This document shows positions 10,137 through 36,243 of a stretch of 64,000 nucleotides of DNA, in pieces; within the stretch, counting starts at the first letter, position 1, and every line of letters begins with the position of its first letter. Made by a program: the position numbers and the translations under genes. Under the pieces are notes generated by a model, which had not been told where the DNA came from, did not search any database, and worked only from the letters and a program-made list of their open reading frames with translations. The stretch is from the NCBI GenBank assembly GCA_017409025.1, contig JAFQTN010000002.1:43967-107966 (forward strand). The letters run 5' to 3'. The stretch comes from Bacilli bacterium. GTDB lineage: Bacteria; Bacillota_I; Bacilli_A; RF39; UBA660.

Positions 10137-11223
10137 TTACCTCCTAATATTCTTTTCTAACAACTCCCCTATATCACCATCTAATATTTTATCTACACTA
10201 CTACTTTCATATCCGGATTCATTATCTTTAACTAATGTATAAGGACACATTACATAACTTCTCTTAGCGCTTCCAAATCCTATAGTCATCTGATCACCTT
10301 TCAAATCATTAATTTGACTATTTTTCTTCATTACTTCTATACTATATAATTTGCTCTTAAGTATTTCCATCGCAGTTTCTCTATTTCTTATCTGACTTCT
10401 TTCATTCTGACAAGTAACAACAATTCCTGTTGGTAAGTGAGTAATTCTAACCGCAGAATCCGTAGTATTTACACCCTGTCCCCCAGGACCACTACTTCTA
10501 TAAATATCAACTCTAATATCACTTTCATTAATTTCAATATTAATACTATTATCAAACTTCGGAGTAACCTCAACCGAAGCAAAAGAAGTATGTCTTCTCT
10601 TACCTGAATCAAACGGACTAATTCTAACTAATCTATGAACACCACGTTCACCTTTTAAATATCCATAAGCATTATTTCCAGATATATTTATTAAAATAGA
10701 CTTAATTCCTACTTCCTCACCAGGTTGCTTATCCACTTCTTCATATTTATATCCATTCTTACTTAAATATCTAGTATACATTCTATATAACATCATAGCC
10801 CAATCACATGATTCAGTACCACCTGCTCCAGAATGTATTTCTAATATACAATCATTTTTATCAAATTCACCAGATAAATAAGTATCTATCCTTAGTTTAT
10901 CAACTAAAACTTTTATCTCTTCATATTCACTATCTATTAAAGAAAACATCTCACTATCAATTTTTTCTTCCAATATTAATAAATTACTATCTATTTTATT
11001 CTTAACAAACATAACTCTATTAATAATATCATTTAAAGAATTATTTTCTTTTAAAATTAATTCCCTATCACTACTATTCCAAAAAGAAGAAGAATTAATA
11101 ATATTATCTAGTTCATCTTTTCTCTTTAATTTATTATCTAAGTCAAAGAGACCTCCAGATATCATCTATAATAACATTTAATTCTTGATAACTACACTTA
11201 AGTTCACGACTATCCATATACAT
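10137..11223 (-). CDS. prfB: Peptide chain release factor 2, made by a programmed +1 ribosomal frameshift. ORF1 of 26 codons ends CTT TGA C at 11148..11142, and the body of the gene continues in the +1 frame.
   Basis: The body ORF has the SPF tripeptide motif (RISPFDSGKRRHTSFASV) and the GGQ motif (RSSGPGGQGVNTTDSAVRITHLPTGIVV). Upstream ORF1 reads ATG(11223) MYMDSRELKCSYQELNVIIDDIWRSL then TGA. An SD-like GGAGG sits 3 nt before CTT. Confidence 0.9.
11142..11157 (-). promoter_or_regulatory. prfB autoregulatory +1 frameshift site (GGAGG-tct-CTT-TGA-C)
   Basis: The minus strand reads TGGAGGTCTCTTTGAC. The spacing and sequence match the conserved RF2 recoding site. Confidence 0.85.
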
Positions 11224-11283: not shown

Positions 11284-13005
11284 TCATTTTCTTGTTAAAC
11301 TATTTTCATCAGTTATTCCTAATTTCTTATCAATAAATTTTACTAATACATTAGTATTAACATCAAACAATTTTTCAAAATCTATAAATTTAATCTTAGC
11401 TTGAAAAGTTAATTTACCTTCATATATATCACTAAATATAATTGTCGTATCATTAAAATCCCTACCAATTAGAAATTCATAATTACCATGAGCTATTGAA
11501 TTTCTAATTCCTTCTATAATAGCTTTATTCTTAAAATACATCCTATTATTAGTAAAATCATCCTTAATAGAATTATATAAACTATATTGATTACTATAAT
11601 CTGTTATAAGACTAACTAAACTATTATTTAGACTAGCAATATTACTATTTATATTATTTATAGCAACTTGATTACCGCTAACCTTAGTTAAATTATTCCT
11701 CTGTTCAATAATTTTCTTACTAATCTTAACCTGTTTATTTACTATAGAATCTAACCCATTCTTAGCATCCAATAACGGTGTCTCATCAATATCAATATAA
11801 GTAACATCTAACATAGATAAATCTAACTTAGAAAAATCTAGCCCATCACTCCTATCTAGCTTATAACCTCCATCAATATCATAAATATCATCAAAAGGAT
11901 ATATAAAAAATGAATTAAACATAGATATTAATAAAATACCATATTCATCATAATAAAATCTCATTTCATTACCATCTGTTATATTGTCAGTAACATATTG
12001 GCTAAGCTCCCTAGTATCAGTAGTATTCTTTTTATATAAAGCATCTAACATTATTAAATGTTTAATATTTGAAGCTATTGGATTAAAGTTATTAAGATTA
12101 GGATTTATCTTTCTATGAAATTCTAATCCTATACCTTCTATTTGACTATGCAAATTTCCATTAGAATCACCAAGTATTTCTGGTTTTAATAATTCTAATA
12201 TCTCATTTACATCATTAGGATCTGTCAACCTTTTACTCTCGATTGTCAATTTACAATTATTCTTTTCAAAATATCTACACATTCTCTTATAATAATCACT
12301 ATTTTTATAAGTATTAAAATTATAATTTACATAATGAATTAATTCTTCAACCATCGCTAATAAATCATCAGTTAATATTTTTCCATCTAAAGACTCTAAT
12401 TTAAAACTAATATGTTCAAACCCCTTTATTACTCTTTTAATTTCCCCAGGAGTTTTTAATGGTTCTTTTCTATTAGCAACCATCATATCAGTAAAAGATA
12501 CCATATCTCTTTCATATTTAGTAGTCTTAACATCACCAATAGTCATTCTTAGTGCATTAGCAATAAATGTAGAAAGTTTATATACAGATAATATAATATC
12601 ATTTCCCTGATGATTTATAATTACTCTCCCATGTTCAAAGTCTATTTTAAAATTACCATGCGCCATCTTATTTCTAATAATAGCAACCAAAGTTTCAGCA
12701 TCTGGAAAAATATAATCACCTATCTTATACCCATTACTTACTTTAGTAGCAATATATGAAACACCATCCTCTAAAGCATTAATAAATACTTTAGATTGAT
12801 AATTTCTCTCACCTAAATTTTCTACCAAATCTTCTTTTACCCCCAACATTATATTAGAAATAATTGCTATTTTAGCTCCTATTATATTTTTCTTATCTAA
12901 TATAAATTGCTGTAAAGATTCATTATTATAATATTTACCAAACCAAAACAAATAATATGCTTTAGTAGCAGTCATATAATCTTTTATAGAACTTAATTTA
13001 TCCAT
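11284..13005 (-). CDS. Hypothetical protein with two predicted HEPN-type active-site motifs (RNxxAHGN[F/Y]) placed near the N- and C-termini, a twin-HEPN putative RNase
   Basis: 573 aa. AIIRNKMAHGNFKIDF (R111/H116, nt 12658..12675) and GIRNSIAHGNYEFLIG (R501/H506, nt 11488..11505). Both fit the HEPN Rx4-6H consensus and resemble the RNLCAH motif in the Abi_2 protein at 46892..47827. The region between them is alpha-helical. Confidence 0.5.
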   Translation of the reverse strand: MDKLSSIKDYMTATKAYYLFWFGKYYNNESLQQFILDKKNIIGAKIAIISNIMLGVKEDLVENLGERNYQSKVFINALEDGVSYIATKVSNGYKIGDYIFPDAETLVAIIRNKMAHGNFKIDFEHGRVIINHQGNDIILSVYKLSTFIANALRMTIGDVKTTKYERDMVSFTDMMVANRKEPLKTPGEIKRVIKGFEHISFKLESLDGKILTDDLLAMVEELIHYVNYNFNTYKNSDYYKRMCRYFEKNNCKLTIESKRLTDPNDVNEILELLKPEILGDSNGNLHSQIEGIGLEFHRKINPNLNNFNPIASNIKHLIMLDALYKKNTTDTRELSQYVTDNITDGNEMRFYYDEYGILLISMFNSFFIYPFDDIYDIDGGYKLDRSDGLDFSKLDLSMLDVTYIDIDETPLLDAKNGLDSIVNKQVKISKKIIEQRNNLTKVSGNQVAINNINSNIASLNNSLVSLITDYSNQYSLYNSIKDDFTNNRMYFKNKAIIEGIRNSIAHGNYEFLIGRDFNDTTIIFSDIYEGKLTFQAKIKFIDFEKLFDVNTNVLVKFIDKKLGITDENSLTRK

Positions 13006-13052
13006 ATTAACACCTAACTAAATTATATCAAAAAAGAAGAAGAATTTCACTA

Positions 13053-15257
13053 CTATTCTTCTTCATCACTAGGCTTTTCTAATTTAACTAATACTTCTCT
13101 AGGCTTAGAACCATTAGCTGGACCTATTATTCCTCTTTCTTCAAGTAAATCTATTATTCTAGCTGCTCTATTATAACCAAGTCTAAACTTTCTTTGAACC
13201 AATGAAGCACTAATCTTACCAGCACTAACAGCAAAGTCAACTACTTCATTATATATTGGATCATCATATTCTTCTTCTGAAGAATAACCATCACTACCAC
13301 TAGATACTGACGTACTGCCACTCTTATCAACAGTTAAGCTCTCGTCATATACAGCCTTTTGTTGACCAATTGAATAATCTACTAATTTTTGAATTTCTTC
13401 TTCAGACACATAAGCACCTTGAATTCTCATTGGAATACTCTCACCCATTGGTAAAAATAACATATCACCTTTACCAAGTAACTTTTCAGCTCCACCCATA
13501 TCTAAAATCGTTCTAGAATCAATTTGTGAAGAAACTGCAAAACTAACTCTTGAAGGAATATTTGCTTTAACAACACCAGTAATAATATCAGTAGATGGTC
13601 TTTGAGTAGCAACAATTAAATGTATCCCAGCAGCACGAGCCATCTGAGTAATTCTCATAATAGAATCTTCTACTTCTTTAGCAGCTACTAACATTAAATC
13701 TGCAAGTTCATCTATAATTACCACTATATAAGGTAATTTCTTATATTCAGTATGAGTCTCACAATATTTATTATAAGAAACTATATTCTTATTTTTAGTA
13801 TGTTCTAATAACTCATATCTTCTTTCCATTTCTGCTACTATATTCTTAAGAGCTATTGAAGCTTTCTTAGCATCAGTAACAACCGGACTAAGTAAATGAG
13901 GTATTCCATTATACATTGAAAACTCTACTTTCTTAGGGTCTACTAATACTAACTTAACTTGATCAGGCTTACATCTCATAAGTATTGAAGCAATAATACA
14001 GTTAATACATACTGATTTACCACTACCAGTAGAACCTGCTACTAACATATGAGGTGTCGTATTAATTTCACACCACTTTACTTTACCCATAATATCTTTA
14101 CCAAGTCCAACAGCAAGTATTGTCTTTTCATTAACTTCAGGCATACTACTTAAAACTTCCTTAAACGATACACTAGCATTTACCTTATTAGGTAGTTCTA
14201 TACCAATAGTATTTTTACCAGGTATCGGAGCCTGTATTCTAACATCTTTAGCAGCCATCGCTAAAGCAATCTCCCTTTGAATACCCAATAACTTATTAAC
14301 TTTAGTACCAGCCTTTAAATCAAGTTCATATTGAGTAACTGTAGGTCCAATATTAACCTGAACAATCTTACCAGATATTTCAAATACTCTTAAAACATCT
14401 TCTAACTTAGTAATATTTGCCTTAGCATTCATTTCATTCTCTTTACTATTAACATTTTTAACAGTCTTAAGCATATTAATTGATGGCAATTTATATTCAC
14501 CATTATTAATAACTACTTCTTCTTTCTTGTCAATATCAGTATCTTCTATTTTTCTAATAGGAATATCTACATCTACTTCTTCTTTCTTTTCTACCTTAAC
14601 TTCTTCTTTCTTAGAAGTAAGTTCCTCTATCGAAGATATAACTATTCTCTTATCATCAGTTTCTTCTGAAGAAGTAACTTCATCTTTATCAACTTTCTTT
14701 TCCTTATCAATTTTAGGTAATTTAATTTTAGAAAACACACTAACTAAAGAAGTATTAAATACTAAAACAAGACCCAAAACTATAAGTGTGATAATAACAA
14801 TTATTACTCCATCAGCAAAAGCCCAATTAAATATATACATTAAAATTGAACCTATCATTCCACCACCACAGTGCTGAATCAAATCTGTTGACTTAAATGC
14901 TAACATAACATTCTTAAATGTCTCAATTATTATATCTGTACCACTAAACTTTTTAACATATTCCATATGAATTAAAGTAAGAATAGCCATAACAATCAAA
15001 TATAGTCCGATTGACATTCTTGATATAAATTTAGGATTCTTCCTTTTAACTATTAAATAAAGACCTAATAGTAAAAAAACTACTAGCAAAGGAAAATAAG
15101 CTACACCAACCAAAAAAACAGAAAAACTTCTAATAAAATTTCCAGCTACACCATAACCTAACATTCCAATAATTGAAAGTAAAACAAATAATACTCCAAT
15201 TACTTCATTACTATATTCAAACTTTTCTTTCTCTTTCTTTTGTTTTTTCTTTGCCAT
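13053..15257 (-). CDS. ftsK: DNA translocase FtsK/SpoIIIE
   Basis: 734 aa. N-terminal TM segments, an acidic linker, Walker A GSTGSGKSVCIN, Walker B VVIIDELADLM, and a C-terminal gamma wHTH domain (LVQRKFRLGYNRAARIIDLLEERGIIG). Confidence 0.9.
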   Translation of the reverse strand: MAKKKQKKEKEKFEYSNEVIGVLFVLLSIIGMLGYGVAGNFIRSFSVFLVGVAYFPLLVVFLLLGLYLIVKRKNPKFISRMSIGLYLIVMAILTLIHMEYVKKFSGTDIIIETFKNVMLAFKSTDLIQHCGGGMIGSILMYIFNWAFADGVIIVIITLIVLGLVLVFNTSLVSVFSKIKLPKIDKEKKVDKDEVTSSEETDDKRIVISSIEELTSKKEEVKVEKKEEVDVDIPIRKIEDTDIDKKEEVVINNGEYKLPSINMLKTVKNVNSKENEMNAKANITKLEDVLRVFEISGKIVQVNIGPTVTQYELDLKAGTKVNKLLGIQREIALAMAAKDVRIQAPIPGKNTIGIELPNKVNASVSFKEVLSSMPEVNEKTILAVGLGKDIMGKVKWCEINTTPHMLVAGSTGSGKSVCINCIIASILMRCKPDQVKLVLVDPKKVEFSMYNGIPHLLSPVVTDAKKASIALKNIVAEMERRYELLEHTKNKNIVSYNKYCETHTEYKKLPYIVVIIDELADLMLVAAKEVEDSIMRITQMARAAGIHLIVATQRPSTDIITGVVKANIPSRVSFAVSSQIDSRTILDMGGAEKLLGKGDMLFLPMGESIPMRIQGAYVSEEEIQKLVDYSIGQQKAVYDESLTVDKSGSTSVSSGSDGYSSEEEYDDPIYNEVVDFAVSAGKISASLVQRKFRLGYNRAARIIDLLEERGIIGPANGSKPREVLVKLEKPSDEEE

Positions 15258-21966: not shown

Positions 21967-23343
21967 TTATTTACTAACTAATTCAAGAGCTTTTTGTAAT
22001 TGATTATCATTTTCTATTATAGGATTCTCATAATATTCTTCATTTAATTCAACAACATCTGTTGGTTCGATTCCCTTTTCGTTTATCCAATTACCTTCTG
22101 GAGTTAACCAGTTTTCTATTGTATATTTAATCATACTACCATCAGATAAAGTCTTAACCTGTTGAACAGTACCTTTACCATATGTTTTAGTACCTACAAC
22201 AAATCCATTATAACTTTCCTTTATCGCAGCAGCTAATATTTCTGAAGCCGATGCGCTTCCTCCATTAACTAAAACAGAAATTGGATATTCACGATAAGTA
22301 GCTGTCTTATCCTTAGTAACATCAGTATCATCACCTTTTTGTACCTGATATAAAATTTCTCCCTTAGGAAGTAATAAGTTTAAAATAGATGTAACCGTAG
22401 TTAAATAACCTCCATTATTTCCCCTAACATCAATTACTAACCCAGAAATATTTTCTTTTTCTAATTCTTCTAATTTAGATTCAAATTGTTTTGAAGCAAC
22501 AGAGGAAAATATAGAAATACCAATATATCCTATCTTTTTACCATTTTTTTCATATGTTGTACTACTAACAACCGGCATCTCAACCTTATCTCTCTTTAAA
22601 GTAAAAGATAATTCTTCTTCTCCTCTTTTAACTACCATTTTTACTTCTCCAGAACCTTCTACCTTAATATAATTTGATAACTCATTGACACTAATATTTT
22701 CTATTCCAACTTCATCTATCTTTAAATTAATATCATCTACCATTAAAATAATATCATCTTTTTTTAATCCAACTTTATATGAAGGACTATTTTCATAAAC
22801 ATCTATTACTTTAATACCACTATCTGTTAACTGAATCGTAGCACCAATACCTTCATAAACACCATTTACTAGTTCATTAAATTCTTCAGTACCACTTATA
22901 TCAACATAACTAGTATATTCATCTCCAACACTAGATACCATTCCGTTAATAGCACTTTCTACTAACGTTTCTTTATCAATATCGTCATAATAATTATCAA
23001 CAATTGTCTCATAAACTTCAAAAAATTTACCTAACTCTTTTGATAATTTAAAATAATTTCTTCCACCAGTAAAAACTGTAAATACTGAAAAGCAAGCAAA
23101 AGCACCTATAACTAAAGAAGCTAATGTTATAACAAAAACTTCAGAAAAAGAATAATTATCTTTATCCATCTTAAATAAATTACCTACTTTAGAAAAAAAC
23201 TTACATATTTTAGAATTAGAAATTTTTTCATATTTCTTTCTTCTAATATTTCTTTTTTCTATTCTTATCTTTTCTTTTTCTTCTTTAATAATCTTCTTAG
23301 ATTCAAGTATTTTTTTATTAGTTTTTCCCATATTCTCTATCAT
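21967..23343 (-). CDS. ctpA: Carboxy-terminal processing protease (S41 family) with a PDZ domain
   Basis: 458 aa. N-terminal TM anchor, PDZ (GIKVIDVYENSPSYKVGLKKDDIILMVDD), and the S41 catalytic region VLVNGGSASASEILAAAIKE. Confidence 0.8.
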   Translation of the reverse strand: MIENMGKTNKKILESKKIIKEEKEKIRIEKRNIRRKKYEKISNSKICKFFSKVGNLFKMDKDNYSFSEVFVITLASLVIGAFACFSVFTVFTGGRNYFKLSKELGKFFEVYETIVDNYYDDIDKETLVESAINGMVSSVGDEYTSYVDISGTEEFNELVNGVYEGIGATIQLTDSGIKVIDVYENSPSYKVGLKKDDIILMVDDINLKIDEVGIENISVNELSNYIKVEGSGEVKMVVKRGEEELSFTLKRDKVEMPVVSSTTYEKNGKKIGYIGISIFSSVASKQFESKLEELEKENISGLVIDVRGNNGGYLTTVTSILNLLLPKGEILYQVQKGDDTDVTKDKTATYREYPISVLVNGGSASASEILAAAIKESYNGFVVGTKTYGKGTVQQVKTLSDGSMIKYTIENWLTPEGNWINEKGIEPTDVVELNEEYYENPIIENDNQLQKALELVSK

Positions 23344-23438
23344 CTACTCTCTAATAATCAGTCTAACACATAAAATATATTTAAACAATAATTTTTCCCT
23401 AATTTTACATACTTTTAAAATAAATTAACATAATATAA

Positions 23439-24878
23439 ATGGTGAATTATATGAATAAAATTATAAATAAAATTAAGAATGAAACAAACAATCTAGATAA
23501 CGTTATATATAGAAAAAAAAGAATTCTATATAAAGATTTACACATTATATATATTGATGCCCTAATAGCATCAGATAAAATTAGTGATTTTGTATTAAGA
23601 AGCCTAAACAGAATCCATATACCTACATATAAAAATATTATTAACAAAATTGCTAATTTTAAATATAAAGAATTAACTACTTATGATGAAATTATCTATT
23701 ATTTAAATAGTGGATTTACCATCCTTTTAGTATCTAAAAATAAATATATTGCATTAGAAACAAGAAGAGATTTATCAAGAGGAGTATCTACTCCAATAAC
23801 AGAAAACACATCTCGTGGACCACTTGATGCATTCACTGAAAATATAGAAATGAATATTGGTCTAATTAAAAGAAGAATTAAAAGTAATGACTTATGGATA
23901 AAAAAATATGTTTTAGGTAAATATACTCAAACTAGTGCAGGATTAATATATATTAAATCTATTGCCAATAAAGATTTAGTAGAAAAAGTTGACACTCTAA
24001 TTAAAAATATTGATATTGACGGAATTATTGGTACAGGTACTATAAGAAATTTAATTGAAAAAGAAAACAAAAACTTTTTCCCTAACATATTAAGTGCAGA
24101 AAAACCATATACAGCAATTAAATATCTTCTACAAGGTAACGTTATAATAATGATCGATAATGATCCATTTGTATTAATTCTTCCATCAACATTAAATGAT
24201 TATTTTATCTCTGAAGAAGATGATTATAATAAAAGTATAAGTGTATCAGTAACAAGAATAGTTAGATATATAACTTTCGCAATAACGCTACTAACACCAG
24301 GTATATATATAGCAATAACTACATATAACCAAGAAATATTACCAACACAACTCTTAACAAGTATTGCAGCCCAAAGAGAAAATGTTCCCTTTTCAACCTT
24401 TGTTGAAGCACTTCTCATGATACTATCATTTGAAATACTAAGAGAAAGTGATTTAAAACTACCAAGTTTTGCTAGTTCTGCCATTTCTATAGTTGGGGCC
24501 CTAATCCTAGGAGAAGCTGCCGTAAGTGCCGGTATTGTATCCCCAATAATGATAATTGTCGTAGCTATAACTTCAATTTCTTCACTAATTTTTGTAGAAC
24601 CACAATTTACAAACGCCCTAAGAATATACCGAATAGGATTTATGATAGGTGGCGTTATCTTTGGAATATATGGAATTCTACTAATGGCAATTCTTTTACT
24701 AATAAATTTAGTTAGCTATGATTTTCTAGGAATACCATACTTATCTCCATTCGCACCACCAATAACTGCTGACTTAAAAGATAGTATTATCAAATTTCCA
24801 ACAATAAAACTTAAAAAAAGAAATCACTTATTAAGTAATAATATAACTAAAAATATAACAGGTGATGAATATGATTAA
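23439..24878 (+). CDS. gerAA: Spore germination receptor subunit A (GerA/GerKA family)
   Basis: 479 aa. GerA-family layout with a soluble N-terminal domain and ~5 C-terminal TM helices. It is first in a gerA-type tricistronic operon and overlaps the start of the next gene. Confidence 0.8.
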   Translation: MVNYMNKIINKIKNETNNLDNVIYRKKRILYKDLHIIYIDALIASDKISDFVLRSLNRIHIPTYKNIINKIANFKYKELTTYDEIIYYLNSGFTILLVSKNKYIALETRRDLSRGVSTPITENTSRGPLDAFTENIEMNIGLIKRRIKSNDLWIKKYVLGKYTQTSAGLIYIKSIANKDLVEKVDTLIKNIDIDGIIGTGTIRNLIEKENKNFFPNILSAEKPYTAIKYLLQGNVIIMIDNDPFVLILPSTLNDYFISEEDDYNKSISVSVTRIVRYITFAITLLTPGIYIAITTYNQEILPTQLLTSIAAQRENVPFSTFVEALLMILSFEILRESDLKLPSFASSAISIVGALILGEAAVSAGIVSPIMIIVVAITSISSLIFVEPQFTNALRIYRIGFMIGGVIFGIYGILLMAILLLINLVSYDFLGIPYLSPFAPPITADLKDSIIKFPTIKLKKRNHLLSNNITKNITGDEYD

Positions 24879-26028
24879 AAAAATATTACTAATCCTTATA
24901 ATATTTCTATTAACGGGTTGTTATGATCACAAAGAATTAAATACAATTGCTATCATGACAGCTACTGAAATAAACAAAATTAATAATGAATATATCATAA
25001 ATGTACAAGTAGTAAACCCTCAATCATCAGATAAAACCGTAAACGTAGGTTCCCCATTTTTCGTATACGAAGGAAAAGGAATAACTTTACACGAAGCATA
25101 TCGTAATATAAAAACACAATCATCTAGATTCTTATATCCTAATCATATGCAATTACTTATTGTAAACGAAAAACTCGCTAAAGAAGATATAAGTGAAATA
25201 ATTGATTTTTACTTAAGAATTCCTGATACAAGAACTGAGTTTAATGTCTTAATAGGAAAATCAGATAATATCCTAAATATAACCACACCTATAGATGATA
25301 TATCAGCAATCAGTATATTAGAAACAATGAGGACCAATAATAAATATTTAGGTATCACTAATCTAGTAACATTTAATGATTTTGCTAATATGAATCTAAA
25401 TAAAAATTTAGAAATAATTCTTCCATCTATTGAAACAGTAGACTACACTGAAGAATCTACCACTATAGAAAATACAGAAAAAACAGAAATAAAAAGTCTA
25501 TATAAACTAGGCAATCTTGCCATATTTAAAGATAATAAACTATTAGATTACTTAGACAAAGATGAAAGCATTACTTATAATCTAATAAAAAATAAAGTTG
25601 CTTCAATATTAATAACCAAAGAATGTGAAAAAGATAAATATATAACAGCTGAAGCAACAGAAATAAAATCAGAAATTAGTACTAAAAATAAAGAAATAAA
25701 TATTAACGTGAAAATGTCAGGGAACATTAATGAAAATATGTGTAATATTAAATTAAATAATGAAAAAGAACTAAAAAAACTAGAAAAAGAATTATCAAAA
25801 TATATCAAAGATAAAATTGAAACCAGTATAAATAATATAAGAAAAAACTATAATTCAGACATATTTGGGTTTTTAGATTTAATATATAAAAAAGATTATA
25901 AAACTTACAAAGAAATAAAAGATACATGGTATGATGGAGAATTTCAAAATATAAAAATAAATATTAAATCATCTATAGATATTATTGGTAAAGGTAATGT
26001 CCAGGAGGGTAATAATGAAAAAAATTAG
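24862..26028 (+). CDS. gerAC: Spore germination receptor subunit C, a lipoprotein
   Basis: 388 aa. Signal peptide with a lipobox LLTGC, and GerAC-family features. Confidence 0.75.
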   Translation: MMNMIKKILLILIIFLLTGCYDHKELNTIAIMTATEINKINNEYIINVQVVNPQSSDKTVNVGSPFFVYEGKGITLHEAYRNIKTQSSRFLYPNHMQLLIVNEKLAKEDISEIIDFYLRIPDTRTEFNVLIGKSDNILNITTPIDDISAISILETMRTNNKYLGITNLVTFNDFANMNLNKNLEIILPSIETVDYTEESTTIENTEKTEIKSLYKLGNLAIFKDNKLLDYLDKDESITYNLIKNKVASILITKECEKDKYITAEATEIKSEISTKNKEININVKMSGNINENMCNIKLNNEKELKKLEKELSKYIKDKIETSINNIRKNYNSDIFGFLDLIYKKDYKTYKEIKDTWYDGEFQNIKINIKSSIDIIGKGNVQEGNNEKN

Positions 26029-27103
26029 TTATTTAGAAATTACATCTCTAGTAATCATTCAAACAGTAACAACCTTCTTTGGTATATCAGTATCAATTTT
26101 AAAAGAAGGATCAGGAATTAACTCATGGTTATCTGCATTATTATCATATGTAATAGGTATAATACCACTTATAATGATTATTTATATCTCTAACTATAAA
26201 AAAGATTTAAAATTAAATGATAAAATAAATAATCTATTTGGTAAAAAAATAGGATTCTGTATCAATATACTCCTATCTTTATTATTAGTATCATTAGCAA
26301 TTACTCTACTATATAATATTAATAATTTTATCCTATCACAATTCTTATACAGAACTCCATTCATAGTAAGTTGTTCCCTATTCATGTTATTAATTATCTA
26401 TAATGCCAATAAAGGAATAAACGTTATATCAAAAGTAGCTATGCTATTATTAATATTAAATATTTTTCTATACACTATAAATATATCATCATTAGTACAA
26501 TATATTGATATCTCTAACTTCTATCCACTATTAAAAGTAAATACTAATAACATAATACCTACAGCCATAAAAATATCAAGTATTAACTATCTCCCACTAA
26601 TAACCATACTAGTAATTCCTAAAGATAAATTAACTACTCCTAAAAAATATAATAAATCTCTAATTATTGGATACATCATCGGAGCTATTATCTCATTTGG
26701 ATTAGTAATAACAACATTTGGAGTATTAGGAATAGACTTAGTAAATACTTTTGAATATTCAGAATATATTGTCTTAAGAAAAGTAAAATTATTAGGCTTC
26801 TTAGAAAGAATTGAAAACATTATTTCACTACAATGGATAATTGGATCATATATCTATTTAACAGTTCTAGTCTATACTATGACAAAAAGCATCTCTATCA
26901 AATCTAAAAAAATAAATACCTGGATAACTACTATTATTGGTATATCTCTAATAGTTATTACCCTATTAATATTTAAAGATAATACTATTTTTGACAATTA
27001 CATTAGAAATATCTTCCCATACATTATCAGTGGAATAACTTTAATCTATATCTTATTAATAATAAAAATATTTATATCTAAAACTAATTTATCAAAAACA
27101 TAG
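25985..27103 (+). CDS. gerAB: Spore germination receptor subunit B (a membrane protein of the APC-transporter superfamily)
   Basis: 372 aa with ~10 TM helices. It follows the C subunit in A-C-B order. The true start is probably MKKISYLEIT near 26015. Confidence 0.75.
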   Translation: MVKVMSRRVIMKKISYLEITSLVIIQTVTTFFGISVSILKEGSGINSWLSALLSYVIGIIPLIMIIYISNYKKDLKLNDKINNLFGKKIGFCINILLSLLLVSLAITLLYNINNFILSQFLYRTPFIVSCSLFMLLIIYNANKGINVISKVAMLLLILNIFLYTINISSLVQYIDISNFYPLLKVNTNNIIPTAIKISSINYLPLITILVIPKDKLTTPKKYNKSLIIGYIIGAIISFGLVITTFGVLGIDLVNTFEYSEYIVLRKVKLLGFLERIENIISLQWIIGSYIYLTVLVYTMTKSISIKSKKINTWITTIIGISLIVITLLIFKDNTIFDNYIRNIFPYIISGITLIYILLIIKIFISKTNLSKT

Positions 27104-27144
27104 ACTTTATAAAATTAGTTTGATAAAATTAAATTGGTGGTAAT

Positions 27145-27882
27145 ATGTGTTTTAGAAAAAAAGCTATTTTAATGATTCATGGTTTCGTAGGTGGTTGTTA
27201 CGATTTTGGTTCTTTTCATAATGAACTACAATTATATAAAAAATTTGACGTATATACATACACTCTACCTGCTCATGAAAAATTTATTGTCAATGATGTA
27301 AAGTATACTGAATGGATTAAGGAGTCCATTAAACAAATAGAATTCTTAATTAATAATGGATATAAAGAAATATATTTAATCGGTCACAGTATGGGAGGCG
27401 TAATTGCAGCCTATCTTGCCAGTCATTACAAAGAAGTAAAAAAGCTAGTACTAGCTGCACCAGCATTTAGATATTTCTATTTTAAAGATGGTAAAGTCGA
27501 TATAAAAAGTTTAAATACTACTCTTAAAAATATAAGTGAAATATTAAAAGGAGCAGATACTGAACAAGTAGTATCTAGAATCTTAAAAACACCAATTTCA
27601 ACAATGATTGAATTTACTAAACTAGTTAATCATTGTCAAAATTGTGTAAACTATATCACCTGTCCTACTCTAACCATTCGTGGAATGGATGATATCGTAG
27701 TTCCAAATGAAGGAGTAGAATTTGTTCATAATGGAATAAAATCTAAATCAAATACTTTAGTAAATATTAAAAAATTAAATCACGAATGTTTTACTCACAA
27801 AAAAAATAATGAAGTAAAAAATATTATTAAAGAATTTCTTGTTAAAAGGCCTAAAAATAAAAAAGAAATTATAGAACTTTAA
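27145..27882 (+). CDS. Alpha/beta-hydrolase fold esterase/lipase
   Basis: 245 aa. Nucleophile elbow GHSMGG within IYLIGHSMGGVIAAYLAS. Confidence 0.7.
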   Translation: MCFRKKAILMIHGFVGGCYDFGSFHNELQLYKKFDVYTYTLPAHEKFIVNDVKYTEWIKESIKQIEFLINNGYKEIYLIGHSMGGVIAAYLASHYKEVKKLVLAAPAFRYFYFKDGKVDIKSLNTTLKNISEILKGADTEQVVSRILKTPISTMIEFTKLVNHCQNCVNYITCPTLTIRGMDDIVVPNEGVEFVHNGIKSKSNTLVNIKKLNHECFTHKKNNEVKNIIKEFLVKRPKNKKEIIEL

Positions 27883-28304
27883 TGTAATTGTCTACATACC
27901 CCAGGATCTGGTTTATAAAAACAATGATTTTTATAACTACCAGCTAATTGTTGATCCCACCAAGTAGCAGAACAGGATGTTCCTGTTGACGGTGCATAAA
28001 ACCATAATGAATTAGTAGCTGGAAAATAATATTCTCCTCGCAAAACTCTTTTTGCCAGGAGTTTTTCTTTTTCCGTAGGATTTCCATAAAACAAAGAACT
28101 ATTAGTACCAGAAAAACCACCAGGACTCTGATAAATCATTTTATAAACCGTTGTAATATCTTTAAATGTTAAACAATCAGCAATAACCCTATTAACTCCT
28201 ACATTTCCGACCATAAGCATCCCTAAATTACCCTCACCTAATGCTTCAGCTCTCATAAGTCTAGCTAAAAGTTCCATTTCTTTCTCAGTATATTTAACTA
28301 TCAT
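27879..28304 (-). CDS. Cell-wall hydrolase, SleB-like catalytic domain (Hydrolase_2 family)
   Basis: 141 aa. LLARLMRAEALGEGNLGMLMVGNVGVNRV...YQSPGGFSG...LWFYAP...WW are conserved blocks of the SleB/CwlJ catalytic domain. There is no N-terminal peptidoglycan-binding domain. Confidence 0.7.
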   Translation of the reverse strand: MIVKYTEKEMELLARLMRAEALGEGNLGMLMVGNVGVNRVIADCLTFKDITTVYKMIYQSPGGFSGTNSSLFYGNPTEKEKLLAKRVLRGEYYFPATNSLWFYAPSTGTSCSATWWDQQLAGSYKNHCFYKPDPGVCRQLH

Positions 28305-28348
28305 CTAATCACCTAAAATATTATATGTTTTTATTATAAATTATTGTT

Positions 28349-28385
28349 AAAATATTGATTAAACTAATATTTTATGATAAAATTA
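28349..28385 (+). promoter_or_regulatory. Putative sigma-A promoter for tRNA-Trp (TTGATT-17-TAAAAT)
   Basis: ttgattaaactaatattttatgataaaat sits ~15 nt upstream of the mature tRNA 5' end. Confidence 0.4.
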
Positions 28386-28401
28386 ATATCGATTCAACAA
28401 T

Positions 28402-28475
28402 TAGGGGATTAGTTAAATGGTATAATAATGGTCTCCAAAACCACTGTTGGGAGTTCGATTCTCTCATCCCCTGCC
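28402..28475 (+). tRNA. tRNA-Trp (anticodon CCA)
   Basis: AGGGGATTAGTTAAATGGTATAATAATGGTCTCCAAAACCACTGTTGGGAGTTCGATTCTCTCATCCCCTGCCA. The 7-bp acceptor stem AGGGGAT/ATCCCCT, the anticodon loop CTCCAAA, a T-loop and an encoded CCA are present. Confidence 0.9.
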
Positions 28476-28493
28476 ATTTGGATATCACTCCAA

Positions 28494-28552
28494 CTTTTGG
28501 AGTTAAATATACTGAAAACGCTTGATTTTAAACTAAAATCAGCGTTTTTAAT
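28494..28552 (+). terminator. Two consecutive hairpins downstream of tRNA-Trp. The second is followed by a T-run, consistent with a rho-independent terminator.
   Basis: Hairpin 1 is ACTCCAA-cttt-TTGGAGT (28495..28512). Hairpin 2 is AAAACGCTTGATTTTA-aac-TAAAATCAGCGTTTTT followed by AATTTTG (28514..28552). Confidence 0.6.
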
Positions 28553-28628
28553 TTTGTATAAATAAAATCATAATATTTTATGTTATAATGTAAATAGGTA
28601 GAATACGAAATTGATTGTGAGGAAACTG

Positions 28629-29441
28629 ATGAACAAAGAATTAATAATAGAAATTGCAAAAAATAAATTTAAAGGCGAATTATTAGAAACTGTATTAAAT
28701 CAAATTAATACATATTTTGAACTAAAAAATTCTGGATATGTTGCCGATAAAAAATATAATTTAAATGATGATGTCATATTAAACAAAAATCATTTGTTGC
28801 ATGGAATTGGGAGACACTCAGATATCGTAAGTATCTTTGCTGATAGAGGAATAATAAGTCAGGATTTTTTGGGTGATGATTCCAATCATGCTTTTTGTTA
28901 TACTTCAGCATTTTGGAGTGTTAAAAAAGATATATCTTTAAAAGAATATATAGAAAATTATAGTGGCATAATTGCAAAAGTAAATGATCAATATTTGCAA
29001 GTTCCTTATGGTAAGTTAGATGAATTTGTGGAGAATATGAAAAAAGTAGATCATTGGTTATGGACTGCCGAGTCTTCAATGGAAATAAGATTTATGCCAT
29101 CTCTTGCTAGAAATATAAATCAAATTGGATTTATTGTTAATATGGAAAATGAACTATGTCAAAAATTAAGAGATAACTCTATATTTAAATCTAATTTTAA
29201 TAAAGAATATTCTTATGAATTTATTAGTGGAAAAGCAAAAGAAAAATTCTTGAATGAAGGTTTTAATGCGGACTTCTTTCAAAGAGCCGATTATTTAATA
29301 TTTGGTGTACCACAAAATGTGATTGAAGGAATTGTTGTTGGTCGAATAGTTGAAAATAATCAAGATTATTTGAATCAACTCAAATCATTATTTCCAAATT
29401 GTTATATTTGCAATTTAGATGGAAAAGTAATAAAAATATAA
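28629..29441 (+). CDS. Hypothetical protein with no recognisable domain
   Basis: ORF of 276 aa from the first ATG, or 270 aa from the GAGGAAACTG-ATG start at 28629. The A+T-biased codon usage matches the host. It is the first gene of the block downstream of tRNA-Trp. Confidence 0.5.
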   Translation: MNKELIIEIAKNKFKGELLETVLNQINTYFELKNSGYVADKKYNLNDDVILNKNHLLHGIGRHSDIVSIFADRGIISQDFLGDDSNHAFCYTSAFWSVKKDISLKEYIENYSGIIAKVNDQYLQVPYGKLDEFVENMKKVDHWLWTAESSMEIRFMPSLARNINQIGFIVNMENELCQKLRDNSIFKSNFNKEYSYEFISGKAKEKFLNEGFNADFFQRADYLIFGVPQNVIEGIVVGRIVENNQDYLNQLKSLFPNCYICNLDGKVIKI

Positions 29442-29573
29442 AAGAAAGGTGTAAAAATAAAAAATGGTATTTGCCTTTAAAATTGTACCATTAATATAAT
29501 TCGAGTTATTGTACTCGTTAAGATAAACTTGGTATAAATATATCAAGTATATCTTATTTAAGGAGTTGATTTT

Positions 29574-29957
29574 ATGTACCATTGTTTTAGACTTAAAAAC
29601 GGTGATGATTTAAAAAAAGAAATTGAAACATATGTAATAAAAAATAAAATTTCGGGTATTATCTTATCTGCTGTCGGCTCTCTTAATAAATTAACATTAA
29701 GACTTGCAGATGGGAAAAGTATCTTAGAAAAAGAAAGTATGTTTGAAATTGTAAGTATCACAGGAACTTTATCCGAAGATGGTGTACATATTCATATATC
29801 TGTTTCGGATGAATTTGGAAATACAATCGGTGGTCATTTAAAAGATGGATGTATTATAAATACTACCGCAGAAGTTGTATTAAAAACATTTGAAAATATA
29901 AAATTTAAAAGAGAATATGATGACAAAACAGGATTTGATGAATTAGTAATAAAATAA
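29574..29957 (+). CDS. PPC-domain (DUF296) protein, a predicted DNA-binding or regulatory protein
   Basis: 127 aa. GIILSAVGSLNKLTLRLADG...EIVSITGTLSEDGVHIHISVSDEFGNTIGGHL is the conserved core of the PPC/DUF296 fold. Confidence 0.6.
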   Translation: MYHCFRLKNGDDLKKEIETYVIKNKISGIILSAVGSLNKLTLRLADGKSILEKESMFEIVSITGTLSEDGVHIHISVSDEFGNTIGGHLKDGCIINTTAEVVLKTFENIKFKREYDDKTGFDELVIK

Positions 29958-30002
29958 TAAAGATACAATAATATCAAGTCTTTTACAATCAAAGGAGTTC
30001 AT

Positions 30003-30551
30003 ATGTTTGAATATAATAAAGAAATAATTTTAAGAATATTAAAATTAGAAGAGTTTGAATTAGATAATTTAAACCCCAACGAAATCCAACATGTACCAAT
30101 GCATCAATATAGAGTATCTAAAAAAAATAGTCCCTATTTATTAGTTGAAAATCTTCAAGTTTGTATTGGTTTATATGCATATACCAATAATTTCGGATTT
30201 GCCGCTCATCTTAATCCAGTAGTAATGCGTGGGAATGAATTTGAATGTGATAAAAATAAAAACATAATATATTGTCGTAGAATTGATGATCTATTCAATG
30301 CTATTACAAATATTAAACCCGAAGGAAATATTCATATTGGAATTGCATTAGGATTAGCACCCGTTCGAGAAACATATCAACAAGCCGAGATGTTAGACAA
30401 ATCAATTGATGAATTAATATTTAAATTAAATACTATGGGTATTGATGCAACCAAGTTAAATATACAACATAATCATATTTTTATATTAGATTCTACTAAT
30501 GGAAGTATAATAACTCCAACAAATACAAAAAAATTCACAAGAAGAAAATAA
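30003..30551 (+). CDS. Hypothetical protein
   Basis: 182 aa with no recognised motif. RBS AAAGGAG 8 nt upstream. Confidence 0.45.
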   Translation: MFEYNKEIILRILKLEEFELDNLNPNEIQHVPMHQYRVSKKNSPYLLVENLQVCIGLYAYTNNFGFAAHLNPVVMRGNEFECDKNKNIIYCRRIDDLFNAITNIKPEGNIHIGIALGLAPVRETYQQAEMLDKSIDELIFKLNTMGIDATKLNIQHNHIFILDSTNGSIITPTNTKKFTRRK

Positions 30552-30677
30552 TAAGTAAGGAAAGATATAAAATCACTTTAAAATCACACTATTTAGAATG
30601 ATTCAAATAAATGTGTCCGTTATGATATGAATTTGTACGAACATATCAAGTTTTTCCATTTATCAGGAGGCCTTTAA

Positions 30678-31109
30678 ATGAGAAATAAATTATATAATAT
30701 GCTAATAGAGAATTATATTCTACACTTAGTTGTAGGAGAAGATATTCCTAAAAATGCACCAAAAGAATTTCATATAGTTAAATTGTATGCACGTGATAAA
30801 GAAGGTAATTTAAATCTTTATACTGAAATTTCTTTGCCATATTTAATTAATCATTCAGAATTTTTAGATATTAAAGATGATCCAAGATATTTCTTTAAAG
30901 AAGGCTATAACCCACAAACAAAAGGATGTAAATATATATGTGAAATAAAACATTTAGGAACTCTGAAAGATGTTTATCGAATTCTTAATGGTCAATCAAT
31001 AAAGATTAGAGATATAGAACCATTATGCGAATTAGAAAATAATGGAAAAAGACATACATTAACAAAGAAATCAAAAGAACAAATACATAAAATAAAAACG
31101 GAAAACTAA
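30678..31109 (+). CDS. Hypothetical protein
   Basis: 143 aa with no recognised motif. RBS CAGGAGG upstream. Confidence 0.45.
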   Translation: MRNKLYNMLIENYILHLVVGEDIPKNAPKEFHIVKLYARDKEGNLNLYTEISLPYLINHSEFLDIKDDPRYFFKEGYNPQTKGCKYICEIKHLGTLKDVYRILNGQSIKIRDIEPLCELENNGKRHTLTKKSKEQIHKIKTEN

Positions 31110-31244
31110 AAAATAATATATTAATTTACTGTTTTCAATGTAAATTAATAGAAATAAAACAATAACATATACAAATCGTGATTATTGTGATATACTTAAA
31201 TAAATTAGTAATCATTAAATTTGAAAGGAAAATAAATAATTGAA

Positions 31245-31862
31245 CAAAACTTATTAGAAAAATTTATAAATAAATTTGTTAATGATGTAATTTTAGAAGA
31301 AGGCCACCCAAATTCACACATATATGAATACTTTAAACAAATAATTAGAGAACCTGAATACGAATGGCTTCGTGATATATATATGCAAAAAAAAGAAGCA
31401 ATTAAAAAAATTGACACAAACAATCCAAATTTTTTAAAAGTTCAAAGAGAACTTGATGAAAAATATTGGTTTGACCCATCAGCTTATTCATATGCAATTA
31501 AAGAATATAAATTAAAAATTATTGAGTTAATAAAAATAACAGAACAAGAATTGTTAGAACAAATTGTAAATAAAATTGTTGATGATGTAATTTTAGGTGA
31601 AGGGCATACAAATGCACATGCATATGAATACTTTAAACAAATAATTAGAGAACCTGAATACGAATGACTTCGTGATATATATATGCAAAAAAAAGAAGCA
31701 ATTAAAAATTTTGATGAAAACGATCCAGAATTCTTAAAAGCTCAAAAAGATTTTTATGAAAAAATGGGATTTGATTATAGTGCTTATTCATATGCAATTA
31801 CAGAATACAAATTAAAAAGAACAAAAAGTTCAATATATACCCCAAAAAAGAAAAAGAGATAA
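31245..31862 (+). pseudogene. Repeat-containing gene, probably disrupted. It holds two 300-bp tandem copies that each encode a ~100-aa unit, has an in-frame TGA at ~31666 where copy 1 has TGG (Trp), and has no canonical start codon upstream of copy 1.
   Basis: Copy 1 encodes ...EEGHPNSHIYEYFKQIIREPEYEWLRDIYMQKKEAIKKIDTNNPNFLKVQRELDEKYWFDPSAYSYAIKEYKLKI... Copy 2 encodes ...GEGHTNAHAYEYFKQIIREPEYE*LRDIYMQKKEAIKNFDENDPEFLKAQKDFYEKMGFDYSAYSYAITEYKLKRTKSSIYTPKKKKR*. The first ~130 nt of each copy are nearly identical. Confidence 0.45.
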
Positions 31863-31901
31863 AAAATATTAAAAGACTTGATACTATAAATCAAGTCTTT
31901 T

Positions 31902-33383
31902 TTAATGAGTTTCAGATCTAACTTGTTTTGGACACTTATTAGTTTTTTTATATACCCTATCTCTATCAACTAAAACTAATGGATATTCTTTAAACCAATC
32001 AGGAGGATTTAAATTACCAGAATCTAAATAACTATCTAAAAGCCTACAATTATCCCCACAAGGACCATCCATTAATGTATCAGTAGTATAATACCCTAAC
32101 CTATCTAATTCATCCCTATATGATGATAATACTGAACTTGGAACACCTTTAGCATCTCTTGACAAATATCTTTGCACTTCTATTCCAGAAGTAACTATAC
32201 CATCTTTATTCCTAATAAATACTTCTTCTAAATTAGGCAAAATCAAATATAAATCAGGACATATTATATCCTCATATGACCATTTTTTACTAACTAATTT
32301 AAATATATAATCTCCTATACGATAACATGATGCCGTAGAACCACATTCAATATATTTATAACTAGTATCCTTACTTAATGACAAATATTTATCAACATAT
32401 TCTTCTAAAATTCTAACTAAACCAGAATGTTCTAAATTCCAATAATCAGTATTAATAGTTCCTCTTCTCATAAAATATGATAATCGTTTTTCATATCTAT
32501 CTAACAATTCTTTTGAAACTTTAGAAGAATAATTATTTAATATCTTTAAACGATAATTAGTCGAAGTTAAAAACAACCTATCAGAATCCTTACTAAATTC
32601 TTCTATCCCTTTATGATTAGTAATATAACGATAACTAAAATTAGCCACAAGTTCTGTCTTAGGGCTTAATAAATGAAATGCAAGACGATTATATTTATAA
32701 TTATTTAAAATAAATTGTTTAAATTTTTCCCATATAAAGTAATCTATATCTCTATCAAAATAAATATATGCTAATTCACTAACATCATTTACATCCATAT
32801 ATTCCTTAATAAAAGATAACTGTTCATTTTCTTGAAATGTTTCACTAGTTAAATACTTTGTAATATCATCATAAAATAAATTTATTTTATCAGAATGATG
32901 CAAAATTAAATACTTCATAAATAAATATCTTATATGTAAATTATCATGTAAAGATAATTGTTTTAACAATTCTAAACATTCATCTATTTTCTGAAACATT
33001 AAACTATATATAAAATCTAAATCATTTATATATTTATCAACAATTTCATCAAAATGTTCTTTTAAATAAACTAAACCTAAACTACTATTATTTAAAAAAG
33101 ATTCAAATAATTCTCTAGAAAAAGAATCTAATTTATAATATTTACCAAGTATATATTTCACATCATCAACGAATTCATCCATATCATATATAATTTGAAA
33201 GCAAAATCTTGGTTGAGCATCTCTTAATTTAGATAAAAAGCCATTAACTATATTAACTCTTCTATCACTTTCTCTAACATATTTTATTAAATTTCTATAA
33301 TCATATGGCGTTAAATTATAGACAAAATCAACATTTCCTTTTTCTAGATATTCTAAAGTATTAAATGCCATAATATCCCTCAC
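31902..33383 (-). CDS. Hypothetical protein. The likely start is MAFNTLEYL at 33368.
   Basis: 493 aa with no recognised domain. The C-terminal part is Cys/Asp-rich (DGPCGDNCRLLDSYLDSGNLNPPDW). Confidence 0.45.
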   Translation of the reverse strand: MRDIMAFNTLEYLEKGNVDFVYNLTPYDYRNLIKYVRESDRRVNIVNGFLSKLRDAQPRFCFQIIYDMDEFVDDVKYILGKYYKLDSFSRELFESFLNNSSLGLVYLKEHFDEIVDKYINDLDFIYSLMFQKIDECLELLKQLSLHDNLHIRYLFMKYLILHHSDKINLFYDDITKYLTSETFQENEQLSFIKEYMDVNDVSELAYIYFDRDIDYFIWEKFKQFILNNYKYNRLAFHLLSPKTELVANFSYRYITNHKGIEEFSKDSDRLFLTSTNYRLKILNNYSSKVSKELLDRYEKRLSYFMRRGTINTDYWNLEHSGLVRILEEYVDKYLSLSKDTSYKYIECGSTASCYRIGDYIFKLVSKKWSYEDIICPDLYLILPNLEEVFIRNKDGIVTSGIEVQRYLSRDAKGVPSSVLSSYRDELDRLGYYTTDTLMDGPCGDNCRLLDSYLDSGNLNPPDWFKEYPLVLVDRDRVYKKTNKCPKQVRSETH

Positions 33384-35612: not shown

Positions 35613-35636
35613 CAAGTTCTTTTAATTTATAGTATA

Positions 35637-36134
35637 ATGATTAAGGAGGTAATTATGGCTAATAACAAAGACTTATCAGTAATGATAAATAATGTTAAAC
35701 TAAACGTAAGAGTTGGCGCAATAATCAAATACCAAAACAAAATTCTAGTAGAAAGAAACAAAAATGTTGATTTTTCAGTTGTTCCAGGAGGCAGAGTACA
35801 AACACTAGAAACTTCAAAGGAAGCACTACTAAGAGAATTACAAGAGGAATTAGGAATAGACCTAAGTAAAGAAAATTTAGAACTTGCATCACTAATAGAA
35901 AATTACTTTACTTTTGATGACAAAAAATACCACGAATTATATTTTGTATACAAAGTAGAGTTAAAACAAGATTATAACCTAAGTAATGGAATTGAAAATC
36001 TAGATAATAGTAATTCTAGTTATTATTTTCTAAACTCTGAAGAACTAGAAAAAGAAAAAATGTTACCAGATGTTATAAAGCAAATTGATAAAGAAAAAGA
36101 ATTTAAACACTATGTAATTAACGACATAAACTAA
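35637..36134 (+). CDS. NUDIX hydrolase
   Basis: 165 aa. Nudix box GGRVQTLETSKEALLRELQEELGI (GX5EX7REUXEEXGU). Confidence 0.75.
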   Translation: MIKEVIMANNKDLSVMINNVKLNVRVGAIIKYQNKILVERNKNVDFSVVPGGRVQTLETSKEALLRELQEELGIDLSKENLELASLIENYFTFDDKKYHELYFVYKVELKQDYNLSNGIENLDNSNSSYYFLNSEELEKEKMLPDVIKQIDKEKEFKHYVINDIN

Positions 36135-36140
36135 TTAATT

Positions 36141-36170
36141 CAAGAGTTATTCAAAGCTCTTGTTTTTTTA
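36141..36170 (+). terminator. Rho-independent terminator after the NUDIX gene
   Basis: CAAGAGTT-attcaa-AGCTCTTG followed by TTTTTTTAT. Confidence 0.6.
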
Positions 36171-36177
36171 TAAAAAA

Positions 36178-36240
36178 AACTTTACGTTATAGGGCACTTT
36201 GTGTTATAATACCAATTAACCAAAAAAGGGGGAAAAATAT
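36178..36240 (+). promoter_or_regulatory. Promoter and leader cassette, copy A. It has an extended -10 TGTTATAAT, a -35-like TTTACG at 18-nt spacing, and an RBS AAGGGGGAAAAAT.
   Basis: ACTTTACGTTATAGGGCACTTTGTGTTATAATACCAATTAACCAAAAAAGGGGGAAAAAT. It matches copy B at 38266..38328 except for 2 positions. Confidence 0.55.
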
Positions 36241-36243
36241 TAT

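Follow-up and report, generated by a model that had tools for sequence, protein, structure and literature searches.

What is a protein with two HEPN-type ribonuclease (RNase) motifs in a single chain doing between the cell-division and translation genes ftsK and prfB of a Bacilli bacterium? The question is raised by a stretch of 64,000 nucleotides (nt; assembly GCA_017409025.1, contig JAFQTN010000002.1, positions 43,967 to 107,966), which was analysed at its full length and is referred to here as the window. An original prediction, made from the sequence of the window, had singled out an open reading frame (ORF) for a protein of 573 amino acids (aa) as a possible compact abortive-infection RNase, toxin or relative of Cas13 ancestors. 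Here, we describe this twin-HEPN protein, its family and its genomic surroundings. The explanation that we favour, tentatively and with slightly less than even confidence, is that of a gated, self-regulated predicted HEPN RNase acting in a single chain as an effector of conflict or abortive infection. The family is abundant in an uncultured lineage of gut bacteria that has reduced genomes and is poorly understood; it is unusual in combining inheritance like that of a core gene with diversification like that of a defence gene.

The ORF is complete, with 573 aa and a stop codon on the minus strand, and its translation contains the motifs RNKMAH and RNSIAH as originally predicted. The gene and the parts of its product are as follows.

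11284..13005, minus strand: single-chain twin-HEPN protein, whole ORF (ORF, end-to-end homologs, AlphaFold2 (AF2) model)
12511..13005, minus strand: N-terminal HEPN-like module (N-module), residues 1-165 (predicted secondary structure, homology to the C-terminal module)
12832..12837, minus strand: K57-E58 at the end of helix-2 of the N-module, at the position of the conserved acidic residue of HEPN (conservation, definition of PMC3710099)
12658..12675, minus strand: first Rx4H motif, RNKMAH, R111-H116, in the context LVAIIRNKMAHGNFKID (translation, conservation)
11902..12510, minus strand: middle alpha/beta domain, residues 166-368 (no fold relative in PDB)
11794..11901, minus strand: conserved acidic segment YPFDDIY...LDFSKLDLS, residues 369-404, without regular secondary structure (conservation, predicted local distance difference test (pLDDT))
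11287..11793, minus strand: C-terminal HEPN module (C-module), residues 405-573 (AF2, sub-threshold PF18736 matches, hhalign)
11488..11505, minus strand: second Rx4H motif, RNSIAH, R501-H506, in the context IIEGIRNSIAHGNYEFL (translation, conservation)

The two motifs stand out both from the window and from the composition of the protein. All six reading frames of the 64-kb window together contain just two instances of RN..AHG, and both belong to this ORF; when the residues of the protein were shuffled 100,000 times, the frequency was 1e-5 for one or more RN..AHG and 3.5e-4 for two or more RN...H. Across 199 full-length family members, which are 17-86% identical to the window protein (median 30%), the first motif is conserved at R111 (98%), N112 (92%), H116 (98%) and G117 (96%), and the second at R501 (99%), N502 (95%), H506 (99%) and G507 (96%). 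Both R..H dyads are kept in 192 of these members, and the twin motifs of the original prediction are thus a property of the family. Both motifs also have the form Rx4-6H with a polar residue directly after the arginine, by which catalytic HEPN domains are recognised (PMC3710099). This conservation bears on a first alternative, namely that the Rx4H-like motifs are structural or serve in binding, as in HEPN proteins that bind nucleotides or RNA and do not cut. Such a role would suit the facts that no solved HEPN structure matches the model and that all Pfam matches are sub-threshold. However, arginine, polar asparagine and histidine are conserved at 92-99% at both sites, and the R-N/H pattern is taken as a determinant of RNase activity that is wholly or partly lost in non-catalytic HEPN (PMC3710099); we consider a protein that is not a nuclease very unlikely.

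The model of the whole protein is confident (AF2, pLDDT 88.6, predicted template modelling score (pTM) 0.81) and places the same elements around each motif: two helices, a third helix that carries the motif at its C-terminal end, then a three-stranded meander and one more helix. In the N-module these are helix 3-25, helix 38-55, an insert, helix 103-115 ending in the motif, a three-stranded beta-meander and helix 141-157, while the C-module opens with helix-1 and helix-2, which form a long helical hairpin (409-486), and continues with helix 488-505, at whose end the motif lies, a beta-meander and helix 540-562. In the published description of HEPN the motif ends helix-3, a polar residue (N, D or H) follows the arginine, an acidic residue lies in helix-2 and inserts are tolerated (PMC3710099), and the modelled order of secondary structure in both modules is HEPN-like in this sense. 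Further, the modules align with each other (hhalign, Prob 94.5%, E 7.6e-8 over 50 columns; reversed control E 0.58), and by this profile comparison they are homologous and stem from an internal duplication. The presence of two HEPN-type catalytic motifs, as judged from sequence, in two homologous modules is well supported.

The two halves are nevertheless asymmetric, because the N-module has K57-E58 (conserved in 95% and 93% of the 199 members), whereas the best acidic residue in helix-2 of the C-module is D483 at 51%, with N487 and N493 conserved in its place. This asymmetry is one reason to consider that the HEPN modules pair with the modules of a second subunit, so that active sites would form across a homodimer. 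Such sites across the homodimer interface are the usual arrangement of HEPN RNases (PMC12165695), and the helical hairpin 409-486 could be an oligomerisation element. Against a homodimer, both motifs are equally strongly conserved in one chain, and the monomer model is compact and confident; we regard this arrangement as quite unlikely. Mean-field direct coupling analysis of contacts between the N- and C-modules (263 sequences, effective number 197) returned top pairs that were artefacts of gap-adjacent columns, and these were discarded.

In the single-chain RNase that we favour, two homologous modules of the pEK499_p136 type (see below), the products of an internal duplication, would flank a middle domain whose fold has no relative in the PDB, and both Rx4H motifs would form one composite, metal-independent RNase site inside the monomer. 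There is a precedent in Cas13, which builds a composite HEPN site within one chain, unlike the dimer-interface site that is usual for HEPN (PMC12165695). The middle domain is a candidate sensor or regulatory domain. The acidic segment that follows it lies in the peak of conservation at residues 361-400 (Y369 90%, D372 78%, D390 88%, L394 91%, D395 85%), and residues 370-405 have a pLDDT of about 86-96 in the full AF2 model vs about 45-60 when the C-terminal module is removed, which suggests that the segment probably packs against the C-module. Because the segment is confidently placed only when this module is present, there is a hint of gating: the middle domain and the acidic segment 369-404 may hold the site closed until a trigger arrives, for example phage infection or stress. 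RNA cleavage would then arrest the cell or the invader, and the protein would be an effector of the abortive-infection or toxin type that carries its own regulation, its gene fixed in the chromosome of one low-GC gut lineage of Bacilli and still diversifying there.

Links to known HEPN families are faint. At curated cut-offs, the whole window protein has no relevant match in Pfam, NCBIfam or PADLOC, and precomputed PF18736 labels are only 'weak' or 'faint'. PF18736 (pEK499_p136) does match the C-modules (residues 478-573) of 15 of 18 members, with a best E of 4.3e-5. Against a profile of 27 relatives of the founding protein from plasmid pEK499, which itself scores 168 bits to PF18736, the C-module aligns with Prob 41% and E 2.8e-4 over 39 columns (hhalign; reversed control E 0.49), and the alignment covers the motif helix (RNSxAH) and the strands after it (profile positions 84-135 of 152). 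The pEK499_p136 family is the only one with any profile signal to the twin-HEPN protein, and the link that this signal indicates is weak. Profile comparison thus weakly bore out the suggested HEPN affinity for the C-module, below the gathering cut-off; the N-module has no Pfam HEPN match of its own but is homologous to the C-module. When each module by itself was the query of a word-indexed profile search, most matches were fragments of the twin-HEPN family, and other HEPN families were not reached. The structural search that had been proposed brought no relative to light: whole-chain Foldseek against PDB had no match at E <= 0.001, no PDB sequence matched the whole protein or either module in sequence and profile searches, and the fold searches found neither a solved relative of the N-module nor a solved HEPN structure matching the model. 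The nearest free-standing relative is a 154-aa HEPN protein (P0272, L148:6001-6465; L numbers are locus labels) with the identical motif RNSIAHGNYEF; its gene is surrounded by tail genes of the P2-like phage kind (GpU, tail X, GpD). The single-domain ancestor may have resembled this protein.

The family as a whole is uniform, with members of about 560 aa. A word-indexed search gave 77 homologs, all of 555-585 aa, and an exhaustive hidden Markov model (HMM) search of 1.84 billion cluster representatives gave 384 at E <= 1e-3 and 202 at E <= 1e-30, the 384 representing clusters at 50% identity; among the HMM matches listed, nearly all have 530-640 aa and align end to end. In GTDB species representatives there are 74 loci (at least 74 species), all from uncultured gut metagenome-assembled genomes (MAGs) labelled Bacilli, Tenericutes, Mollicutes, Mycoplasma sp. 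CAG:472 or Clostridium sp. CAG:628, and the host lineage is presumably the GTDB order RF39. All family loci have a GC content of 21-30%, including a few labelled Bacteroidota. The latter are contigs with Muribaculaceae or Paludibacteraceae labels (L010, L017, L020, L043, L051; GC 22-28%). Horizontal transfer to Bacteroidota was considered and rejected, since the GC content of these loci is like that of the others and L020 has Bacilli-type flanks about 93% identical to those of L003; given the low GC and these shared flanks, the labels are likely due to mis-binning. We found no description of the family in the searched literature, nor anything there on RNA metabolism or phage defence in the host lineage. 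The family is thus previously undescribed, while stand-alone twin-HEPN proteins as such have already been published; what is new here is the different HEPN clade, the middle domain without structural relatives and the confinement to one gut lineage.

The immediate surroundings of the gene agree with the original prediction in that Pfam identifies prfB and ftsK as its neighbours, with which it is co-directional.

13053..15257, minus strand: ftsK (Pfam)
13006..13052, minus strand: 47-nt gap between the twin-HEPN gene and the ftsK stop, with promoter-like site and ribosome-binding site (consensus match)
10137..11165, minus strand, plus a frameshifted 5' part: prfB (Pfam)

The 47-nt gap contains a candidate TG-extended -10 promoter (GTGAAA, 17 nt, TATAAT, with the TG extension) and AGGTG as candidate ribosome-binding site of the twin-HEPN gene, both as consensus matches only. 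From the twin-HEPN stop to the real start of prfB there are about 60 nt, and gaps of this size leave no room for an antitoxin RNA or an array beside the gene. The absence of an array, cas genes or a partner gene, also part of the original prediction, held true: no CRISPR-like repeat array was detected anywhere in the 64-kb window, cas genes and a partner gene were likewise not found in it, and an Rfam scan of the window at gathering thresholds gave two distant tRNAs only and nothing near the twin-HEPN gene. At window positions ~11150..11222 (minus strand), prfB has the classic programmed +1 frameshift site, GGAGG followed by CTT TGA C, and UGA is therefore a stop codon in the source organism. 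The true prfB start is ATGTATATGG..., about 60 nt downstream of the twin-HEPN stop codon, and the mechanically called prfB ORF of 342 aa is without the first ~20 codons. Elsewhere in the window, the GC skew rises from strongly negative to values around or above zero at ~23000..32000 and 35000..39000, which indicates blocks of opposite-strand genes in an otherwise minus-strand window, and a 300-nt unit in two tandem copies (31234..31818; 84% matches, Tandem Repeats Finder score 851) inside such a reversed-skew region is probably an internal repeat of a coding sequence.

Beyond the window, the gene behaves in several respects like a gene involved in conflict. The twin-HEPN protein is always more diverged than its flanks: where it is 48% identical, prfB, ftsK and YitT are 68-83% identical, and in the locus pairs L003/L004 and L050/L052 the flanks are 95-97% identical while the twin-HEPN proteins are only 43-44% identical. 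These comparisons point to allele replacement at the twin-HEPN locus. Tandem head-to-tail pairs occur at four loci (L024:5989-9345, L027:2518-5527, L033:2301-5634, L034:1008-4341), and one species retains, at the same position, an 87-aa C-terminal remnant with an intact GIRNSIAHGNY (L147:6001-6264). Because this species keeps only the remnant, the gene appears to be dispensable. Chromosomal position also changes between clades, and in other clades the gene lies among veg/spoVG, trpS, cysS, recG, alr and hrcA; no gene family recurs within three genes of it in more than 8 of 76 loci, and the same 76 loci have no conserved adjacent antitoxin gene of the HEPN-MNT (type VII) or another two-gene toxin-antitoxin kind. 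The original prediction had proposed to check whether orthologues lie at variable loci: there are shifts between clades and a variable cassette in one of them, and the ftsK-prfB order is kept at 48% identity. In the cassette, PADLOC identifies as candidates a RhuM protein (PDC-S05, E 1e-146), a KilA-N protein (PDC-S22, E 2.5e-127) and a NUDIX protein (PDC-S07).

Further observations concern the same loci. The cassette lies between a conserved hybrid histidine kinase and cysS (L003:5921-9899, L050:2387-9773, L052:3567-9097, and also L020 and L147), and its content differs between close genomes, with RhuM, the KilA-N protein, NUDIX, unknown ORFs and the twin-HEPN allele among its parts. A few MAGs have twin-HEPN copies on two contigs (CAKPKL, CAKOJI, JAQUVS). 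The 87-aa mini-ORF forms several clusters at 90% identity with 10-54 sequences each (P0236, P0237, P0241, P0246). An ORF family of ~245 aa with a kinase-like appearance (cluster 17) adjoins the twin-HEPN gene in at least seven loci, overlapping its start by 8-17 nt in three, at the following positions.

L007:7274-8008: cluster 17 ORF
L021:5272-5934: cluster 17 ORF
L024:5214-5957: cluster 17 ORF
L050:5157-5894: cluster 17 ORF
L052:5121-5861: cluster 17 ORF
L055:8188-8928: cluster 17 ORF
L059, ~5287-5826: cluster 17 ORF
L147:6276-6992: cluster 17 ORF

The invariant residues of this family, G20, G22, G25, K38, D130, N134 and D146, lie at protein-kinase catalytic positions, and two kinases, YabT (E 0.05) and RIO1 (E 0.46), are its best PDB matches, at E values that are not significant; it has no Pfam match. 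The ORF is absent from the window and confined to a subset of lineages.

A number of results weigh against an effector of conflict or abortive infection, or against its description as a HEPN protein. In the window the gene lies between ftsK and prfB, outside any defence island. Its divergence correlates with the divergence of the host genes Abi_2 and HtrA (Mantel r 0.79, 0 of 2000 permutations), and the inheritance of this chromosomal gene is mostly vertical. No member of the family occurs in 2.9 million viral contigs (IMG/VR), 50,697 phage genomes (GenBank) and 72,556 plasmids (PLSDB), and PADLOC-DB v2 gave no family for the window protein or for the L050 homolog. With regard to the domain itself, every PF18736 match is below the gathering cut-off of 26.6 bits (window C-module 15.7 bits, E 0.013), which by Pfam's own rule leaves the family outside PF18736, and the N-module alone has no match among the Pfam HEPN families.

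Much of this would suit a lineage-specific housekeeping RNase, that is, a HEPN protein domesticated for RNA processing or decay in gut Bacilli with reduced genomes and expressed with the cell-division and translation genes beside it. A parallel would be eukaryotic Las1, a HEPN nuclease with a housekeeping role. In addition to the mostly vertical inheritance and the absence from collections of mobile elements, such a role is favoured by the tight co-directional packing with ftsK and prfB, the order ftsK-X-prfB-yitT-yitT (X being the twin-HEPN gene) kept in the homolog of 48% identity, the housekeeping neighbours in other clades, the native GC content (24.4% vs 25.7% for the window) and the wide distribution in 384 cluster representatives and at least 74 species. 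On the other side stand the far faster evolution of the gene relative to its flanks, the strongly diverged alleles between nearly identical flanks, the remnant in one species and the tandem duplicates in others, the shifts in position between clades and the PADLOC candidates as neighbours in one clade. We therefore judge housekeeping to be a serious but unlikely explanation, and continue to favour the conflict effector.

A more specific version of the favoured reading would make the family a second, independent route to a Cas13-like pseudo-dimer of HEPN in a single chain. It would have been assembled from a duplicated HEPN of the pEK499_p136 type (not the AbiD/F type), a sensor of new fold and an acidic plug, and would be a rapidly diversifying, vertically inherited immune or stress RNase, fixed in the chromosome across a lineage of uncultured gut Bacilli and paired in some branches with a minimal kinase-like regulator. 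We consider this proposal doubtful as a whole. Should the motifs indeed share one active site, then the single-chain form of HEPN RNase has come about two or more times, starting from different clades of HEPN, and this would matter for judging how easily scaffolds like that of Cas13 evolve. The middle domain, to which no solved structure is related, may be a novel module for sensing a trigger.

Among known systems, AbiD/AbiF is represented in the window itself.

46892..47827, minus strand: Abi_2/AbiD homolog (PF07751 E 2e-39; PADLOC AbiD E 8.5e-56)
45719..46879, minus strand: htrA, beside Abi_2

The Pfam match upholds the original identification of this ORF as Abi_2. AbiD/AbiF proteins (Abi_2, PF07751) are candidate RNxxAH HEPN RNases like the twin-HEPN protein, but have a single HEPN, and AbiF acts with an antitoxin non-coding RNA (ncRNA) of the RF03085 type. 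The likeness of the motifs to that of the window Abi_2, pointed out originally, did not hold up as kinship: hhalign places the motifs in register, but with E 0.086 for the N-module and 0.59 for the C-module, neither significant, and a specific kinship was rejected. Membership in the AbiD/AbiF toxin-antitoxin systems was rejected as well, since PF07751 has no match in twin-HEPN family members and no RF03085-type or other ncRNA was found near the twin-HEPN gene or Abi_2, including the 208-nt gap upstream of the latter. In the same genomes, Abi_2 has a pairwise identity of 53-99% (median 75%) vs a median of 26% for the twin-HEPN protein, and is conserved like a core gene. It is syntenic with htrA throughout the lineage. 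In distant clades Abi_2 is found 1-4 kb upstream of the twin-HEPN gene; together with htrA it has this position at 12 loci, and in about six of these htrA is the direct neighbour of the twin-HEPN gene. This very highly conserved Abi_2 homolog poses the same puzzle as the unusual mix of core-gene and defence-gene traits in the twin-HEPN family.

HEPN RNases coupled to kinases are known from RNase L and Ire1, with their kinase-KEN arrangement, and from Las1-Grc3. Their kinase or kinase-like partners may be compared with the cluster 17 ORF beside some twin-HEPN genes, although the latter is a separate minimal protein and its assignment as a kinase comes from motif positions and non-significant PDB matches. 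With the pEK499_p136 type (PF18736; founding protein WP_000528932.1, E. coli plasmid pEK499), the C-module has the motif helix RNSxAH in common. The known members of that family are single-domain proteins of ~150-170 aa encoded on plasmids, in prophages or in restriction-modification or Pgl operons, whereas the twin-HEPN protein has two modules, a middle domain of ~200 aa and a long helical hairpin, and is chromosomal.

The closest likeness in design is to Cas13an and related proteins. The literature derives Cas13 from HEPN proteins of the AbiD/F type, and Cas13an, whose HEPN domains group with AbiD/F and have a rearranged helix order, has 429-577 aa (PMC12165695), so that the description of the window protein as much smaller than any Cas13 is outdated. 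In Cas13an, single-site mutants in either motif are reported to lose all activity. Among clusters of the AlphaFold database, Yoon et al. 2024 reported twelve with HEPN dimers inside one chain, of which ten have no CRISPR array (PMC12165695). The twin-HEPN family was not found among these clusters, in versions of their sequences cut at 400 residues, and its host organisms are missing from the published tables. It could accordingly be asked whether the protein belongs to the line from AbiD/F through Cas13an to Cas13, either as an ancestor that has no array or as a type VI effector that has degenerated and may be guided by an RNA from another locus. Its two HEPN motifs in a chain of 573 aa, inside the Cas13an range, would allow this, and the RNxxAHG-aromatic motif resembles HEPN2 of Cas13an, e.g. 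LRNHVAHGGFF. However, the candidate was rejected, with neither an adjacent array or guide RNA nor a sequence or structure link to Cas13 HEPN or AbiD/F; the family HMM scored <=8 bits for any domain against Cas13an and two bacterial clusters (400-residue versions of the sequences). We consider membership of the Cas13 lineage extremely improbable, and the originally suggested relationship finds no profile or fold link. By any test available the twin-HEPN family is outside that lineage, and the protein seems to have arisen separately from Cas13. It differs from Cas13an in its canonical helix order and pEK499_p136 affinity, and in having no array or guide RNA and no sequence or fold match. Cas13an and the intramolecular HEPN-dimer clusters are nevertheless like the twin-HEPN protein in chain size, in their two Rx4H motifs and in being mostly array-less, and the origin proposed for the Cas13an clusters, in which two HEPN units closely related to each other were fused or duplicated, resembles the twin-HEPN duplication in kind; the feature common to them is the architecture.

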